Below, one piece after another: positions 3,511-42,243 of a stretch of DNA of 64,000 bases (position 1 is the stretch's first letter; every line of letters starts with the position of its first letter). Both the position numbers and the translations under genes were made by a program. Under the pieces are notes generated by a model. The model worked only from the letters and a program-made list of their open reading frames with translations, had not been told where the DNA came from and did no database searches. The stretch comes from Escherichia coli (GTDB lineage: Bacteria > Pseudomonadota > Gammaproteobacteria > Enterobacterales > Enterobacteriaceae): the NCBI RefSeq assembly GCF_001677475.2, contig NZ_CP015229.1; one strand, 5' to 3'.

Positions 3511-4272
3511 TCACTTCACATCCTCTCTGGAACAATTCATCTGCCGTATAATATCCCGGTACTTGTTCAGCTCCCGCAGCGCGGCGCAGACACGCTCCCA
3601 CTTCTGGACATGGCTTTTCGCCCGACGCAATTCGCGGTTTGCTATATGCAGCGATGGTAAAATCAGGTCATCCCCTTGCGTTTCGGTGAGCGATGGTAAC
3701 GACTGCACCATGTCCGCCACAGTTTCTGTTTTAATATCTTCCTGTGTTGCAGCTTCCTGTACCGGTAACGCAACACCGGCTGGCTGAGGAAAGGCTTTAC
3801 CATCGGTTTCCGCTACCGATGCGGCTTTCAGCTCTGCTGGTAAATTATCTCCCGGCATGCAGTAGCGAAATTTACCGTTCTGGTTTACGCGTGCCAGCCG
3901 CCCCGTTGCGGTTACTACTGCCAGCGTGGAAGCAACCTTGCGAGTGCTGACACAGAACTTACCCGCCAGTTCCTCACACGTTTTAGCTCCCTCCTGACCG
4001 ATAAACTCAATCATCATGTCAGCGGTAACTTTTCGTTCGACCGCCCTGGTCAGCACATCCGGTACTTCAGATTGTGCTGGCTGCTCTTCGGTTACCCCGG
4101 ATTCACCTTCGCCAGCCAGAAACCAGGTGTGACCCGTTTTATCAACGACGCCATTTCTTTTCAGTTCCCACAGCTCGTTCAGCACTTCTTCACGACTGAT
4201 ATCAAGTCGCGCAGCCAGTTCTGTCGACGTGGCTTTCCCCATTGCTTTCAGTGCGTCAAAAACAGTCTCCAT
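3511..4272 (-). CDS. Hypothetical prophage protein with an N-terminal winged-helix-like domain (about 253 aa)
   Basis: ORF track 3511..4338; the probable start METVFDALK at 4272 avoids overlap with the upstream gene; N-terminal [27 protein letters not shown] resembles a wHTH. Confidence 0.5.
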
Positions 4273-36848: not shown

Positions 36849-37928
36849 TTAGCTGTTCAAATCAGAAGTCGTATTCCCCGGTAGAACAATATTACTGGCA
36901 GCAAGTTCGCCCATGTTGTTGTATATCGCACAAGCAGCTTCGATGATGGGCATCGCCAGAGCTGCACCACTCCCCTCACCTAAACGCATATCCATATTGA
37001 GATAAGGCTCCAGCCCCAAATGCGACAGCGCTATACGCGCGCCTTTTTCTGCCGACAAGTGAGAAGGAATGAGATACGGTTTGATTGCAGGAGACATCTG
37101 GTAGGCTGCGAGCGCAGCAGCATAAGAAAGAAATCCATCCAGCAACACAGGTAAACCGCAGGAAGCAGCGCCTAACATCACGCCAGCCATTCCGACCAAA
37201 TCAAATCCACCCACTTTTGCCAGGACATCAACGCCATCCTGAGGATTTGGTTTATTCAACGTAATCGCCCGGCGCACAACATCAATTTTATTAGCCAGTT
37301 TATCTGTCGGCAGGTTTGCGCCAATCCCAACCACTTCTTCAGGATCCCGGCCAGTGATTGTGCTGACTATTGCCGCTGCCGGTGTCGTGTTTGCCATCCC
37401 CAGTTCACCTACACCAAACAGCGTGACACCGTTTTTTGCCAGCTCCCGCGTATAACATATGACGTCCAAAAGCAACTTTTCAGCCTGACGGCGACTCATT
37501 GCCGGAGCTGAAGCAATATTGCCGCTACCTCGTGCGACACGCATGTTGATAAGCCCGGGGATAGGCTTAGCAGTATCAATACCAACATCAATTACGTGGA
37601 CGTTAGCGCCCGCTTGTGCTGCCAGCACACACACGCCGGTTGTTCCGCGGGTCATATTTTCAGCCTGAATGGCTGTCACTTCTTTTGGGGAAATAGCGAC
37701 CCCTTCCTCCCAGACGCCGTGATCGGCACACATAACCAGTACTGCTTTTTTGCCCACATGCGGTATGCCATTCAACCCCGGCATTCCCGCCAGTTGTATG
37801 GCAAGCGCCTCCAGCCTTCCCAGGCTACCAACAGGTTTGAGTAACCCGTCGATATGCCGTTGTGCACGCGACATAGCGGCAGGATCGATGGCAGGGATCG
37901 TATTCAGTAAATCGGCAAGTGTTTGCAT
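36849..37928 (-). CDS. cobT: Nicotinate-nucleotide--dimethylbenzimidazole phosphoribosyltransferase
   Basis: 359 aa; matches CobT in length and sequence pattern; first gene in the cobUST order read on the minus strand. Confidence 0.9.
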
Positions 37929-37939
37929 GTCACGTCTCT

Positions 37940-38683
37940 TTATAGCATTGCCAGCAGGAAGACCAGTTCACCTAGCTCTATGGCTGCTCCCAGCGTATCG
38001 CCGGTTTGCCCGCCCAGCGTACGTTTGAGAAGCTGACCGAGAATGAAAATCGCAGCCATCGTCAACACCATAGCAGCCACACCATGCATACCCGGCAATA
38101 ATACGGCAGCAAAAATAGCGGCTAAGCCGAGTGTGACGCAGGTTTGTCGCCCATCAATTTTGCCAATGAACACATTGCCAAGCCCTTCTTCCCGGGCATA
38201 ACGATGACGATACATCAATAATGTGGCAGTCCCGCGGCTGACCGCACATGCTGCCGCCAGCGATGCAAGGATCGGTTCGCCACGCAGAGCCAACTCGCTT
38301 AACACCAGAATCTTTGCCAGTACAACAAAAATCAAGGCCAGACCGCCGTGGGTGCCTAACCGGCTATCCCGCATGATTTCCAACATGCGTTCGCGACTAC
38401 GTGCAGAAAATACGCCATCACAGGTATCGGCGAGGCCGTCCAGGTGGAATCCCCCGGTCATCAGCGCCAGCACAAGTACGCTAAACAGTGCCGCCAGTGG
38501 TACGCCACACCATGCCTGCAGCACCATGAAGACCAGCCCGCTGATCGCGCCAAGCAATAATCCAATCAAAGGAAAAGTAATAATACCGCGAGAATAATGC
38601 TCGAAATCCAGTCCCTGGGACCAGCGACGCGGTACAGGCAGACGCGTAATAAAAGAGAGCATCGCCCAAAATAATTTACTCAT
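37940..38683 (-). CDS. cobS: Adenosylcobinamide-GDP ribazoletransferase (cobalamin synthase)
   Basis: 247-aa polytopic membrane protein from [20 protein letters not shown] overlap with the cobU stop; the ORF track 37940..38719 is an upstream extension. Confidence 0.9.
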
Positions 38684-39225
38684 TTGATTTTTACTCCAAT
38701 ACCCGAAACCACCAGCCATACTTCATTTGCCGCAGCGGCCAGCTGCTGATTTACCCGCCCGGCAATATCACGAAAATGTCGTGCCAGACGACTCTCCGGC
38801 ACAATCCCCATACCCACTTCGTTAGTCACTAATACAACCTTTGCGGGGCAACGTTGGCAGGCAGTAATCAACGACTGAATCTCAGCATTAATCGCCTGTT
38901 CCATCACCTGATAATCCCATTCATCAGGGTCTTTATCGCCGCCATAATCAAACAACAGATTAGTCACCATTGTGGTAACGCATTCCAGCAACACAGCCTC
39001 ATTCGGGTTAATGTCTGCATGAATTAATTCATCAAGATGTTGCCAGCGCTCCACTGTGCGCCAGTGCGCCGGGCGGCCTTGCCGATGATGTTCTATCCGT
39101 GCAGCCATCTCATCATCAAGGATTTGCGAGGTGGCGATATACAGAACCTGTGAAGAGTCCCCAATAAGCGCCTCTGCGTGGCGACTCTTCCCGCTCCGTG
39201 CGCCCCCCGTCACCAAAATCATCAT
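38680..39225 (-). CDS. cobU: Bifunctional adenosylcobinamide kinase / adenosylcobinamide-phosphate guanylyltransferase
   Basis: 181 aa with P-loop GGARSGKS; matches CobU. Confidence 0.9.
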
Positions 39226-39358
39226 ACCGACTCCTGATTCATTTGTATGATGGTATTCATTGAACAGAACAATGGATCCCCCACCGTTGCTGACCGCAAA
39301 ACATTTACGCGATTAATACTGCGCGTAATATAATTAAAAATCCAGTATTCTCAATCCA

Positions 39359-39865
39359 TTACGAAAGAAGATGGCATTGCGGGATAGCCAGACTTCCTCG
39401 TGTTAACGTCCGACAAAATGCGTCATTGACAGCGGTTTCTCTGGCATGACAGATTTCATTCAGATAATGGATTAATGCTGCAGCCCCACCAGCCGGACCA
39501 GTCAGCAAACGGGCATTGTGTTCTGCAATCAAAATTACCGTCGTTCCCTCAGAATGAGCGAGCCATTCTGGTACAGATATCTCGCTTTCAGCTGCTATCA
39601 ATAGCAGCACTGAATAATCGCTATATGCATCTGATAACGATTGCACAGGCCCACCGTCAAAAGGCTGGAAATCTTGCTGCCAGTCCTCACCAACAAAACA
39701 GGTTATTGGCAATATTTCAGCCAGATGTTTCGCCAGGTCCACATCTCCAGATAAGAGGCAAAAAAGAGCTATCGATTCGGGTTTTATCGTTTTCATGCCC
39801 CTCGCCCTCCACTTAATTTCCTGTAATGGCGGTCTGGTTGATAAGCCATGAAACAAGATTGCCAC
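39359..39865 (-). CDS. Orphan ORF (145 to 168 aa) occupying the slot of the cbi genes, immediately downstream of the cobalamin riboswitch; possible remnant or fusion of cbi genes
   Basis: ORF track; first ORF after the riboswitch on the cob-operon strand; no family recognised; the corresponding interval in Salmonella holds 17 cbi genes. Confidence 0.4.
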   Translation of the reverse strand: MAILFHGLSTRPPLQEIKWRARGMKTIKPESIALFCLLSGDVDLAKHLAEILPITCFVGEDWQQDFQPFDGGPVQSLSDAYSDYSVLLLIAAESEISVPEWLAHSEGTTVILIAEHNARLLTGPAGGAAALIHYLNEICHARETAVNDAFCRTLTRGSLAIPQCHLLS

Positions 39866-39959
39866 ACCTTAAGTGCAGCCCTGGTGCCTGTCGGCACTGC
39901 GATGAAAGAACTAAATGATGCCGCCATACCCTGATCCTTTCAGGGTGGTAGGGGTATAA

Positions 39960-40190
39960 AGACGCGCCTGTACTCTACCTGACGCTTCCGGGCAACCCAC
40001 TTCCCACCGAAGTTGTTGGTATTGACTGACTGGCTGGTCTTCTGGCTTAGCGTCATCCTCACCCGACCTTCCCAATCTCGCGATCAGTGGCATTTTCGGG
40101 TTTGTCAGCATTACAGCAGCGGGGGCTGCGAGGGATTTTCACCCTCTTCCCAGGCACAAATGTGCCACACCTGTCAGCGTATGTTATGAG
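39960..40190 (-). promoter_or_regulatory. Cobalamin (B12) riboswitch in the cob operon leader
   Basis: The minus strand reads ...GGGAAGAGGGTGAAAATCCCTCGCAGCCCCCGCTGCTGTAATG...GCCACTG...GGGAAGGTCGGGTGAGG..., matching the conserved core and the B12 box (GCCACTG) of the cobalamin riboswitch; located between pocR and the first cob-strand ORF as in Salmonella. Confidence 0.8.
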
Positions 40191-40277
40191 CTGATTTCAC
40201 TTTTCCCATAACAGGTAAATAACGTTAATTATTCATTCCAGCGTTTATTTAAACCTTCCCTTTTTTTAGCATTTACT

Positions 40278-41192
40278 CTATACCGTTTCCATCGCCGCAT
40301 TTTCACTCACTTGCTGTCGATACACCTGCGGCGTAACCTGATAAGTCTGACGAAAAACTTTGCAAAAATAACTGGTTTGTGAAAAACCTAAATTACGCGC
40401 AATGCTGGCGATGCTCCAGTCGCTATGGCACAGTAACTCACGAGCGCTGGCCATCCGTTGTTGGTTTACCCACGCATTAAACCCGATTCCATGGTATTTC
40501 TTGAATAACTTACTGAAATAATAAGGGCTTAGATAAACATGCGAGGCGACATCTTCCAGACGCAAATCGTCTGATAAATGCGCATCAATATAGCGTAAAG
40601 CTTTTTTCATTTTATTGTCGTGGGGACCAGGCGCACGAGTCTGGCGCACCGAATCTGACTGAGATTTGTTCTCTTTAATAACCACAAAATTGAGTTGTTT
40701 TTTGAGGCAATTTTCTACAATCAACTTCAACAAATCAGCAGAGGCCATAACTCTTGAGTAATCCATCTCAGGGACTTTGCGAAATTCATTAAGTAATTCG
40801 GGATCTGCCTGCCAGCAATCATCGACATTCAGAATATCGACCAAATCGACATCATCATTACGCAGACGAACTTGCCCGCACAATACAAAACCGACTAAAT
40901 GCCCGGCGATTACCAGTGGAATAGAGAAATCGGTTAATCCGGCATGACAGCGATAAATACAAGGCTGATCGGATTTAGAGGCTTCCAGGCCCCCACAACG
41001 ATCGCTCATGCGACATCGAGTGCTTAGCTGAGGGTGTTGCCGCATCAACTGACAAAATGGAGTGAAGTTAAACAGCTCGGAAATTTCATCGCCGTGAATA
41101 TTGACCACGACAACCGCAAGGCTGGTCGCCTGCGCAAAATCCTGCGCGATTTTATTAATGAGTTCTGAATTAAGTGTCGCCGCAGAAATCAT
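40278..41192 (-). CDS. pocR: AraC-family regulator PocR (activator of pdu and cob operons)
   Basis: 304 aa; C-terminal AraC-type HTH (DVASHVYLSPYYFSKLFKKYHGIGFNAWVNQQRMASARELL); position between pduF and the cob leader. Confidence 0.85.
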   Translation of the reverse strand: MISAATLNSELINKIAQDFAQATSLAVVVVNIHGDEISELFNFTPFCQLMRQHPQLSTRCRMSDRCGGLEASKSDQPCIYRCHAGLTDFSIPLVIAGHLVGFVLCGQVRLRNDDVDLVDILNVDDCWQADPELLNEFRKVPEMDYSRVMASADLLKLIVENCLKKQLNFVVIKENKSQSDSVRQTRAPGPHDNKMKKALRYIDAHLSDDLRLEDVASHVYLSPYYFSKLFKKYHGIGFNAWVNQQRMASARELLCHSDWSIASIARNLGFSQTSYFCKVFRQTYQVTPQVYRQQVSENAAMETV

Positions 41193-41394
41193 GATAAAAC
41201 CTCCCAGTTAATTTATTGTTATAGCAAAACAATTGTTTTACATTTAATCTTCACATCATCCTTGATGATTTACTGACGAGAAGCACAAAGGACAATAACA
41301 AAAGCCTCCGTGAAGCGGGAGACTTTTTAATAAGTTCGGAAAGCAGATCACAAACAGTAAAAAAATAAACGTTTATAACTGCCAGATTATTTCG

Positions 41395-42204
41395 TTATTC
41401 GCTGATTTCTTTAGGCGTTACACTATTGACAGGTAAATTCTTTGCAATGAGATAGCGATAAATCGCCGCACCAACACATGCGCCAATGATCGGTGCAATA
41501 ATGGGTACAATGAAATAAGGAATATTGCGTCCACCAGTCATCGCAATTTCCCCCCAACCCGCAAGCCAGGTGAAAAATTTAGGTCCAAAATCACGCGCTG
41601 GATTCATGGCAAAACCGGTTAATGGTCCGGTAGAAGCACCAATAACAGCAACCAGAATACCAATTAGTAAAGGCGCAAGCGGTCCTTTGGGTACGCCATT
41701 ACCGTCATCGGTCAACGCCATAATCAACCCCATTAACATGGACGTTATGACCACTTCGACCAACGCAGCTTGCCATACATTAATCGCCGCTGCCGGATAA
41801 GTACTGAAGATACTGGCGAGTTGTAAACTTTCTGCACTACCACGCACCATATTGTGAGCAGATTCAAAATCGGTAAACAAACTGCTGTATAGAGAATATG
41901 CCAGAACCGCACCACCAAAGGCACCCGCTAATTGCGCCACACAAAATGGCAGCACTTTACGGGCTGGGAAAGAGGCAAACAGCCACAGAGCAATGGTAAC
42001 TGCCGGGTTGAGATGAGCGCCGGAAATACCTGCCGTAAGGTAAACAGCAAGCGAAATCCCTAACCCCCAAATGATACAAATTTCCCACAGTCCCAGACTT
42101 GCCCCGGCAACTTTCAGGGCGCACAAACAACCAATGCCAAAAAAGAGGAACAGTCCGGTGCCTAAAAACTCGGCAACGCATTGCGCCTTGAGTGAATCAT
42201 TCAT
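41395..42204 (-). CDS. pduF: Propanediol diffusion facilitator (MIP/aquaporin family)
   Basis: Two NPA motifs (HLNPAVT and NPARDFGPK), six TM helices; start taken at MNDSLKAQC within ORF 41395..42243. Confidence 0.85.
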   Translation of the reverse strand: MNDSLKAQCVAEFLGTGLFLFFGIGCLCALKVAGASLGLWEICIIWGLGISLAVYLTAGISGAHLNPAVTIALWLFASFPARKVLPFCVAQLAGAFGGAVLAYSLYSSLFTDFESAHNMVRGSAESLQLASIFSTYPAAAINVWQAALVEVVITSMLMGLIMALTDDGNGVPKGPLAPLLIGILVAVIGASTGPLTGFAMNPARDFGPKFFTWLAGWGEIAMTGGRNIPYFIVPIIAPIIGACVGAAIYRYLIAKNLPVNSVTPKEISE

Positions 42205-42243
42205 AGTGACACCTTCTTTACGGAGTTTTTCTTTATCAGCCAA

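Follow-up and report, generated by a model that had tools for sequence, protein, structure and literature searches.

An ancient cob operon scar in Escherichia retains a cobalamin riboswitch and may still provide a regulatory leader for cobUST

Description

By sequence comparison, the Escherichia locus between pocR and cobU is an old deletion scar of a Salmonella-type cob operon (vitamin B12 synthesis). In the window, the 64,000-nucleotide stretch of Escherichia coli DNA analyzed here (contig NZ_CP015229.1), none of the 17 cbi genes is intact, fragments of cbiA, cbiG and cbiP remain, and the order along the minus strand is pocR, B12 aptamer, cbiA', cbiG', cbiP remnant and cobUST. To judge from its junctions, the scar is ancient and shared across the genus Escherichia, and we propose with modest confidence that part of it still acts as a regulatory leader for cobUST. 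Translation of the relic frames most likely remains under the control of the switch, which would influence cobUST by way of these frames. The features of the locus are:

41192..40278, minus strand: pocR, AraC-family regulator of pdu/cob (NF047788, 553.8 bits vs cutoff 500)
40277..40190, minus strand: 88-nt spacer between pocR and the aptamer, from alignment with Salmonella and Citrobacter
40189..40015, minus strand: cobalamin riboswitch aptamer (RF00174, model positions 1-189 of 189, 109.5 bits vs gathering 31.5, E = 2e-27)
40014..39928, minus strand: 3' leader, predicted expression platform
39946..39940 and 39934..39928, minus strand: ribosome-binding-site (RBS) hairpin within the 3' leader (ACCCTGA, loop AAGGA, TCAGGGT), ending directly before the cbiA' AUG
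39927..39793, minus strand: cbiA' mini-ORF, 44 codons plus stop, with the original cbiA start codon and a TGA stop that overlaps the cbiG' ATG (ATGA)
39796..39359, minus strand: cbiG' ORF, 145 codons, of which codons 1 to ~124 are the CbiG N-terminal region and a ~21-codon tail spans the cbiG/cbiP junction
39358..39226, minus strand: 133-nt spacer, the decayed 3' end of cbiP, now non-coding, which also carries the cobU Shine-Dalgarno sequence
39225..36849, minus strand: cobU, cobS and cobT, nucleotide-loop assembly (corrinoid salvage); no other intact cob genes follow the switch
39225..38680, minus strand: cobU (NF004469, 246.8 bits vs cutoff 161)

The gene order pduF-pocR and cobUST-ldtA is the same in the window and in the full operons of Salmonella (L079) and Citrobacter (L081), with proteins 78-91% identical, and the Salmonella enterica cob leader occupies the same chromosomal place (pduF-pocR-leader...cobUST-ldtA). 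The initial annotation had reported that the cbi block is absent relative to Salmonella, and this holds: in Salmonella and Citrobacter the same leader is separated from cobU by 17 cbi genes (cbiA to cbiP), whereas the Escherichia leader heads the 44-codon cbiA' and the 145-codon cbiG', followed by cobUST. Three deletions account for this arrangement. Deletion D1 took ~230 nt after pocR, D2 took cbiA from ~codon 4-16 through cbiF, and D3 took cbiG from ~codon 125-137 through cbiP, sparing the last ~115-160 nt of cbiP. On this reading, a complete Salmonella-type cob operon once stood at the same chromosomal place in Escherichia, and de novo B12 synthesis was lost via three internal deletions before the genus diversified, which bears on the long-standing loss-and-reacquisition account of cob and pdu in enteric bacteria. 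A literature search found no description of the cob scar. The cbiA' mini-ORF, the cbiP origin of the spacer, the loss of the upstream promoter region, the genus-wide extent of the scar and the existing annotation are additions to the initial annotation.

Riboswitch and leader

A cobalamin riboswitch had been claimed on the minus strand between pocR and an ORF, and a covariance-model search with RF00174 detected it over the full model, with both the B12 box, AGCCAGAAGACCAGCC, and the GCCACUG core visible in the alignment. It lies in sense orientation, on the strand shared with cbiA', cbiG' and cobUST. Other Escherichia alleles score 105.6-112.8 bits and Salmonella 106.9 bits. Between Escherichia, Salmonella and Citrobacter the B12 box and core hardly vary; 1-2 positions differ, in the last third of the B12 box. 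Identity of the aptamer and 3' leader to the cob leaders of Salmonella and Citrobacter is 82-85%, and the aptamer is orthologous to that of the Salmonella cob leader.

The RBS hairpin was predicted in both folds, and the alignment places the same hairpin in Salmonella and Citrobacter, where it likewise ends at the cbiA AUG. Across the 3' leader, 12-15 of 15 columns are invariant in each 15-nt bin, except in bin 39984..39970 (6 of 15). The leader is predicted to respond to B12.

Upstream, the spacer equivalent to the 88 nt behind pocR is 310-325 nt long in Salmonella and Citrobacter, so that ~220-240 nt are missing here (deletion D1). The lost stretch, which Salmonella keeps, holds a hairpin and U-run directly after pocR, a block with a promoter-like site (TTGTCA-16-TAAAAT) and the leader start. 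No terminator-like or promoter-like sites were found in a scan from the pocR stop codon to the aptamer, and the riboswitch RNA probably derives from the pocR transcript.

Relic reading frames and the cobU spacer

The leader match to the full operons stops 9 nt inside cbiA, and the mini-ORF segment MAASFSSFIAVPTGT aligns with MAANFHAFVLAGTGS of CbiA (tblastx). The length of the mini-ORF and its ATGA overlap are identical in 11 of 11 valid alleles. For the part at 39882..39797, nhmmer found no source. A cbiF origin for the mini-ORF tail, suggested by the likeness of DRHYRKL to the CbiF C-terminus (HEYRKA), was rejected on frame, position and the lack of an nhmmer match. A terminator-like stem lies within the mini-ORF (39879..39861), and such sites are no commoner in the region than expected by chance.

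The ORF of 145 to 168 aa, followed by 133 nt and then cobU as originally described, runs from 39865 or 39796 to 39359, and it proved to be the 5' third of cbiG. It had been suggested to be a cbiA-cbiP fusion or an unrelated captured gene. The first suggestion fails, as no similarity to CbiA or CbiP, both P-loop amidotransferases, was found by NCBIfam, Pfam (PF01656, PF07685), tblastx or nhmmer; CbiA-like sequence is confined to the mini-ORF, and cbiP-like sequence to the non-coding spacer. Against the second, NF004463 aligns at profile positions 1-126 of 351, with homology running from the cbiG ATG to ~codon 124 (ORF nt 1-372 by nhmmer). The supported start is the ATG at 39796: cbiG homology begins exactly there, a GGAGG precedes it by 9 nt, and the PGAP call in E. 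coli LR-45 is 438 nt long. The GTG at 39865 (168 aa) is disfavored by the same three lines of evidence, and the extension would overlap the mini-ORF in another frame.

cbiG' shares the start codon and first ~124 codons of cbiG (cobalt-precorrin-5A hydrolase, NF004463 / PRK05788), but it covers about one third of the protein, and its NF004463 score of 74.2 bits lies below the whole-protein cutoff of 546. The CbiGs of the Salmonella and Citrobacter operons have 351 aa and all three domains, whereas cbiG' ends at residue 145 and matched none of Pfam CbiG_N, CbiG_mid and CbiG_C. Protein alignment gives ~37% identity between cbiG' and real CbiGs, compared with ~90% among the latter, and shows a 7-codon loss. 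In the relic alleles, the GHAGGAN motif of Salmonella, Citrobacter and Klebsiella is replaced by GPAGGAA, GPAGGAV or GPAGEAV. The AlphaFold model of cbiG' has a pLDDT of 62, and Foldseek against the PDB returned nothing better than E = 0.02 and TM ~0.3; a PDB sequence search with Salmonella CbiG found 3eeq and CobE and no definition of a stand-alone N-domain. The proper annotation for the ORF is cbiG fragment, instead of "hypothetical protein" or "cobalamin biosynthesis protein".

cbiP and cobU overlap at their stop and start codons, respectively, in the full operons. An nhmmer profile of the 133-nt spacer matches the last ~115 nt of cbiP in Salmonella (L079; E = 2e-6) and in Citrobacter, and a translated spacer segment of 14 residues aligns with Salmonella NLYHHATAPGASMM. 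Four non-triplet or mixed indels separate the alleles of this remnant. It contains a promoter-like site (39354..39327, minus strand, TTGAGA-16-TATATT) that agrees with the consensus at 10 of 12 positions; the promoter scan of the region gave 2 sites vs 2.0 expected by chance. Downstream, cobS and cobT were called in all related loci (Pfam CobS, DBI_PRT), and dN/dS is 0.21, 0.04 and 0.09 for cobU, cobS and cobT, respectively.

Constraint on the aptamer and relic frames

Constraint was assessed among Escherichia alleles, of which three extra ones added almost no independent divergence; one of these three, a chimeric scaffold with Ns (L093), was excluded, and the mini-ORF played no part in finding any allele. 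Mean pairwise divergence is 0.060 for the aptamer, with no indels, and 0.076 for the 3' leader, compared with 0.15-0.19 for the spacers and relic ORFs. The suggestion in the initial annotation that cobUST may still be under B12 control is thus plausible, with 6-8% divergence between lineages in the aptamer and expression platform vs 15-19% in the flanking relic DNA.

Neither relic frame is interrupted in any of the 11 valid alleles, and cbiG' has 144 or 145 codons. The probability that cbiG' would remain free of stops under neutrality is 7e-6 to 2e-4 with nine alleles, 8e-4 to 5e-3 with the alleles found independently of the ORF, and 1.7e-6 to 6.5e-5 in a re-run that included L093. For the mini-ORF the same probability is marginal (P ~0.02-0.03; 0.09 with four lineages). 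The ORFs carry 1 in-frame indel in 569 nt, the spacers 7 indels in 221 nt (P ~3e-7, Poisson arithmetic).

The dN/dS of cbiG' is 0.43 overall and 0.39 for its CbiG-derived core (codons 2-124), which also has a third-position excess (57/47/93, p = 1.3e-4; unbiased set 38/28/54, p = 0.014). This excess is absent from the equally old cbiP remnant. Protein-level constraint is confined to the core and was not seen in the 21-codon tail, the mini-ORF (dN/dS 0.56, codon periodicity absent) or the cbiP relic. Neutral decay, taken as stops or frameshifts, dN/dS ~1 and no periodicity, describes the cbiP remnant and the ORF tail and, as far as periodicity is concerned, also the mini-ORF; the cbiG' core has no stops and a single in-frame indel besides its low dN/dS and third-position excess. 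These values indicate weak protein-level constraint on the cbiG' core (dN/dS ~0.4).

Distribution and further erosion

The architecture and junctions of the scar are identical in E. whittamii, E. albertii, E. marmotae and divergent E. coli-labelled lineages. Among complete E. coli genomes, 643 of 5,426 carry it, and PGAP already annotates the riboswitch there; the ORF, too, has an annotation in hundreds of E. coli genomes. The switch is kept only in genomes that retain pocR and pdu; ~88% of E. coli are without it and have also lost pdu and pocR, so riboswitch control of cobUST is dispensable. Later events in E. coli, independent deletions as well as IS insertions, have all left at least ~128 nt before cobU, and all E. 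coli genomes with a match keep at least that much of the cbiP-derived spacer. Shorter ORF variants (83-136 aa) are present in the protein database, and some strains therefore tolerate its disruption.

The E. albertii locus has an internal deletion in cobU and no cobT, but its switch and both its frames are intact; this fits poorly with, and counts against, a role confined to cobUST.

Proposed regulation and alternatives

The observations in favor of the proposed leader include the leader match that ends in cbiA, the cbiG match that begins at its ATG, and aptamer scores that equal or exceed that of Salmonella. Read-through from pocR would supply the riboswitch RNA. Adenosylcobalamin on the aptamer would sequester the cbiA' ribosome-binding site and leave the mini-ORF and the coupled cbiG' untranslated; the resulting ~700 nt of naked RNA would lead to premature (Rho-type) termination or decay, and less cobUST would be made from the transcript. 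At low B12 the relic frames would be translated and transcription would continue through cobUST. A weak promoter within the cbiP remnant may give basal, B12-independent cobUST expression, and this remnant is the only part that survives in the ~88% of E. coli lacking pdu, pocR and the switch. As a separate observation, classical Rho-utilisation sites are C-rich and the relic RNA is not, which counts against Rho polarity.

A tentative extension of this model is that the gene fragments were recruited as a translated leader, their frames being kept open to relay the B12 signal over ~700 nt to cobUST by coupling and anti-polarity, with the original protein function irrelevant. It would overlap with an option in which cbiG' is a new B12-regulated small protein. 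The locus is a clean natural test case for whether pseudogene fragments are retained as translated regulatory spacers, with the decaying, equally old cbiP remnant as a built-in control.

It is unlikely that the scar is inert, with a functionless switch and frames that persist between the selected pocR and cobU and owe their conservation to limited time or allele recombination. Most E. coli did drop the switch and keep cobUST, IS elements and deletions are still eroding the locus, truncated ORF variants occur, and the relic ORFs change 4-8 times faster at non-synonymous sites than their neighbors, at about the spacer rate. What speaks against an inert scar is an aptamer and leader that diverge a third to half as much as the flanking relic DNA, without indels in either and with undiminished aptamer scores in every lineage. 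So does a cbiG' that is stop-free at P <= 5e-3 even in the unbiased set, with a third-position excess in its core that the cbiP remnant lacks.

The frame might instead be kept because cbiG' is a functional small protein, a stand-alone CbiG N-domain remnant under B12 control, which we regard as rather improbable. Its constraint is confined to the CbiG-derived codons (third-position excess p = 1e-4), its frame, start codon and Shine-Dalgarno sequence are conserved genus-wide, and it is intact in E. albertii, where cobU and cobT have decayed. On the other hand, such a protein would have to work without the CbiG middle and C-terminal (CobE-like) domains, without a Pfam CbiG_N match, and with 7 codons lost; in the conserved GH-GGAN motif, the His and Asn are gone. 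Its identity to real CbiGs is low, its structure model is of low confidence with no structural match, and the other cbi genes, which are needed to make its substrate, are missing. A dN/dS of 0.4 indicates weak constraint and also fits selection against a harmful or misfolding translated product.

Finally, the switch could have pocR as its target in place of cobUST: lying in the 3' UTR of the pocR mRNA, it would set the 3' end or stability of that mRNA by B12 and tune pdu induction. D1 took the hairpin and U-run and the native promoter-like block, the aptamer now lies 88 nt behind the pocR stop on the same strand, and the switch is retained only alongside pocR and pdu. In Listeria, a B12 riboswitch beside pocR controls pocR through antisense RNA. 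This is the least probable reading. The most conserved part of the leader is the cbiA RBS hairpin and start codon, on which translational control of downstream frames depends; a pocR model does not require their conservation.

For the proposed cobUST leader, known systems offer two further comparisons besides Salmonella, whose RF00174 score is equal or lower. The E. coli btuB riboswitch belongs to the same RNA family and acts through the accessibility of the ribosome-binding site that serves the first frame after it. It precedes an intact functional gene, whereas in the scar the first two frames are gene fragments, with the presumed targets another ~700 nt downstream. The E. coli K-12-type locus shares cobU, cobS, cobT and ldtA with the window and keeps the cbiP-derived spacer and the last ~160 nt of cbiG' at ~92% identity. 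Unlike the window, K-12/HS-type loci retain nothing upstream of window position ~39530, where an IS4 remnant marks the junction. They have neither pdu and pocR nor the switch, which therefore cannot control cobUST in them. pdu is present in about 12% of complete E. coli genomes, among them those of strains for which propanediol use is important in the gut, and in these pdu-positive E. coli B12 salvage may be wired to both PocR and B12 via the leader.

Genomic context

The initial annotation placed a cobalamin riboswitch between pocR and an orphan ORF in front of cobU, and this arrangement is confirmed, coordinates included: the aptamer covers positions 1-189 of the 189 in RF00174 and scores 109.5 bits (gathering score 31.5). 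It is a clear member of the family, orthologous to the aptamer that heads the cob operon of Salmonella. The features of the locus, all within the window, are:

from 42717, opposite direction to the pocR-cob genes: pduA, pduB, pduC and later pdu genes
42243..41395 (-): pduF
41192..40278 (-): pocR
40189..40015 (-): cobalamin riboswitch aptamer, full-length (RF00174)
39927..39793 (-): 44-codon frame headed by the cbiA start (mini-ORF)
39796..39359 (-): 145-codon ORF, here called cbiG', then a 133-nt spacer
39225..38680 (-): cobU, with cobS, cobT and ldtA coming next

The cbi block is indeed missing relative to Salmonella: between matching flanks, the full operons of Salmonella (L079) and Citrobacter (L081) carry 17 cbi genes, with overlapping cbiP stop and cobU start codons and hence no spacer. 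The pocR-pduF gap contains, on the opposite strand (41253-41336, +), the enterobacterial sRNA STnc230 (RF02075, 76.3 bits), which was present at the same place in 7/7 related loci scanned.

Origin of the relic frames

BLAST of 40300..39160 against 77 pocR-linked loci and the two complete operons gave three anchors. The leader anchor (40193..39919) is 82-85% identical to the Salmonella and Citrobacter riboswitch and leader and stops 9 nt inside cbiA (ATG GCG GCA at 39927), and the codons past it are still CbiA-like at the protein level (MAASFSSFIAVPTGT vs MAANFHAFVLAGTGS). The second anchor (39797..~39650) matches about 6 kb deeper in the full operons, beginning exactly at the cbiG ATG, and a profile of Escherichia alleles carries this match on as far as nt ~372 of the ORF (codon ~124). 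The third is the spacer, which corresponds to the 3'-terminal ~115-160 nt of cbiP (nhmmer E = 2e-6) and from which a 14-residue peptide can be read that aligns with NLYHHATAPGASMM of Salmonella. No source could be assigned for 39882..39797 and ~39424..39380. Because the cbiG match begins at the cbiG ATG and the cbiA and cbiP matches fall elsewhere, the ORF derives from cbiG, as BLAST, NCBIfam and profile matches agree, and the cbiA-cbiP fusion suggested in the initial annotation is rejected.

The mini-ORF TGA stop and the cbiG' ATG overlap as ATGA. The cbiG' product matches positions 1-126 of 351 of the NCBIfam CbiG profile (74 bits, cutoff 546), has no Pfam match and, though cbiG-derived, fell outside CbiG in every membership test applied. 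Its identity to real CbiGs is only ~37%, against ~90% among the real ones, and it has lost seven codons, carries GPAGGAA for GHAGGAN and lacks the middle and C-terminal domains; it is thus predicted to be far from a working CbiG. Inside the mini-ORF, a short stem, a 4-nt gap and a T-rich run (39879..39852, -; T8 in the E. whittamii allele, interrupted in the window) could form a weak terminator or attenuator at the cbiA' junction, a kind of site no commoner than chance.

A further deletion lies behind pocR. In Salmonella, Citrobacter and Escherichia sp. MOD1-EC7003, 310-325 nt with conserved blocks separate the pocR stop from the aptamer, vs only 88 nt in the window. The lost stretch includes a hairpin and U-run immediately 3' of pocR. 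It also includes a site with good resemblance to a promoter (TTGTCA-16-TAAAAT), ~480 nt before cbiA, a distance that suits the long leader known from the Salmonella cob operon. Neither promoter-like nor terminator-like sites were found in the remaining 88 nt, from which we infer that read-through out of pocR now produces the aptamer RNA. The MOD1-EC7003 locus (L036, 11204-18932), from a genome known as Escherichia by label only, has what looks like a full cbiA to cbiH block after a pocR whose product is 85% identical to that of the window, and illustrates the pre-deletion state.

Conservation

Mean pairwise divergence among six lineages was 0.060 for the aptamer and 0.076 for the 3' leader, vs 0.170 for the pocR-aptamer spacer, 0.187 for the mini-ORF, 0.180 for cbiG' and 0.148 for the cbiP-derived spacer. 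Through the RBS hairpin (ACCCUGA-AAGGA-UCAGGGU, ending at AUG) and the first ~6 cbiA' codons, 12-15 of every 15 columns are invariant, except in bin 39984..39970 (6/15), and invariance is lower thereafter. Aptamer scores are 105.6-112.8 bits in Escherichia vs 106.9 in Salmonella. Given this low divergence, the invariant columns and the undiminished scores, sensor and expression platform are under purifying selection.

In 11/11 valid alleles the 44-codon frame and its ATGA overlap are retained, as is a cbiG' of 144 or 145 codons; a JGI metagenome contig (L093) was left out as chimeric (an N run, with an E. marmotae-like to window-like switch at ~1100-1140). With substitutions counted by parsimony (255 in cbiG', 86 in the mini-ORF), cbiG' would stay stop-free under neutrality with a probability of 7e-6 to 2e-4, and the mini-ORF with one of 0.02-0.03; a run on 12 alleles that still included the chimera gave 1.7e-6 to 6.5e-5 for cbiG'. 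The cbiG' test is biased by four alleles that were found via the intact protein. With loci found by pocR or DNA similarity only, cbiG' gave 8e-4 to 5e-3 and the mini-ORF ~0.09; the mini-ORF value of 0.02-0.03 stands because that frame was never used in finding alleles. Indels number 7 in 221 nt of spacers, 0 in 262 nt of aptamer and leader and 1 (in-frame, 3-nt) in 569 nt of ORFs, where ~18 are expected at the spacer rate (Poisson P ~3e-7), though AT-rich spacers may be more indel-prone.

Pooled dN/dS (Nei-Gojobori) was 0.04 for pocR and cobS, 0.05 for pduF, 0.09 for cobT, 0.21 for cobU (the highest of the intact genes within Escherichia), 0.43 for cbiG' (core 0.39, tail 0.54) and 0.56 for the mini-ORF. 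Substitutions were also counted, free of any model, at codon positions 1/2/3.

Substitutions by codon position
cbiG' codons 2-124: 57/47/93, p = 1.3e-4 (0.014 in the unbiased set)
cbiG' tail (last ~21 codons): 19/19/20, not significant
mini-ORF: 26/26/34, not significant
cbiP remnant: 19/13/11, not significant

The CbiG-derived core is apparently under weak constraint at the protein level, the mini-ORF and cbiG' tail look constrained, weakly, merely to remain open, and the cbiP remnant changes in the manner of neutral sequence.

Distribution and possible function

The three junctions are common to E. whittamii (L003), two divergent lineages labelled E. coli (L004 and L005), E. marmotae (L085), E. 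albertii (L083) and further Escherichia sp. loci. Since flanking genes differ by ~8-13% between these lineages, the scar is older than the diversification of the genus. The whole arrangement occurs in 643 of 5,426 complete E. coli genomes (up to 98.6% identity), where PGAP labels it "riboswitch" plus "hypothetical protein" or "cobalamin biosynthesis protein", and a further 4,754 hold the cobU-proximal part alone, mostly 39530..39200 beside an IS4 remnant. Among the other endpoints are a deletion that joins pduV' to cbiG' and an IS1 143 nt upstream of cobU; in every case ~128 nt or more in front of cobU survives. Independent erosions of these types, with the IS4-remnant junction inside cbiG' and the pduV fragment joined to mid-cbiG', were seen in L090 (E. 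coli HS, 3805-4163), L094 (788-1500) and L095 (1207-1841), with cobU itself untouched. Two assemblies look E. coli-contaminated: a contig of a "Citrobacter sp." MAG (L002) 98.4% identical to the window, and a 383-nt contig in a Streptomyces assembly (L064) encoding PocR at 98% identity.

The riboswitch is already marked by genome annotation, and a literature search for the scar found no description. The novelty lies in the architecture and its past: three deletions left a scar, found across the genus, in which an intact switch that lost its own promoter heads two gene fragments that have been kept open and then the salvage genes.

The best-supported reading, towards which we lean somewhat, is a live switch and translated leader controlling cobUST. 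Translation initiation at the cbiA' start would still be gated by the switch, the leader would consist of the mini-ORF and coupled cbiG', and with B12 bound these frames would go untranslated, lowering cobUST output from the pocR read-through transcript via polarity or decay; the cbiP remnant would supply a basal promoter (TTGAGA-16-TATATT at 39354..39327). Against this stand the absence of the switch from most E. coli, the E. albertii locus, which retains the switch and both frames despite a damaged cobU and absent cobT, and the promoter scan, in which such sites were no more frequent than chance. That the scar is inert, its conserved sensor and open frames notwithstanding, is unlikely; that cbiG', with its weakly constrained core, has turned into a new small protein is rather more doubtful. 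Action of the switch on the pocR mRNA, with which the aptamer would be co-transcribed, is improbable.

The E. albertii locus (L083, 6436-7900) has an internal deletion in the cobU P-loop region and lacks cobT, so that corrinoid salvage is probably broken in this strain; its riboswitch (112.8 bits), mini-ORF and cbiG' are all intact. Identity to the Salmonella and Citrobacter counterparts is lower for CobU, CobS and CobT of the window (36849-39225; 78-85%) than for PocR (90-91%) and PduF (86-87%).
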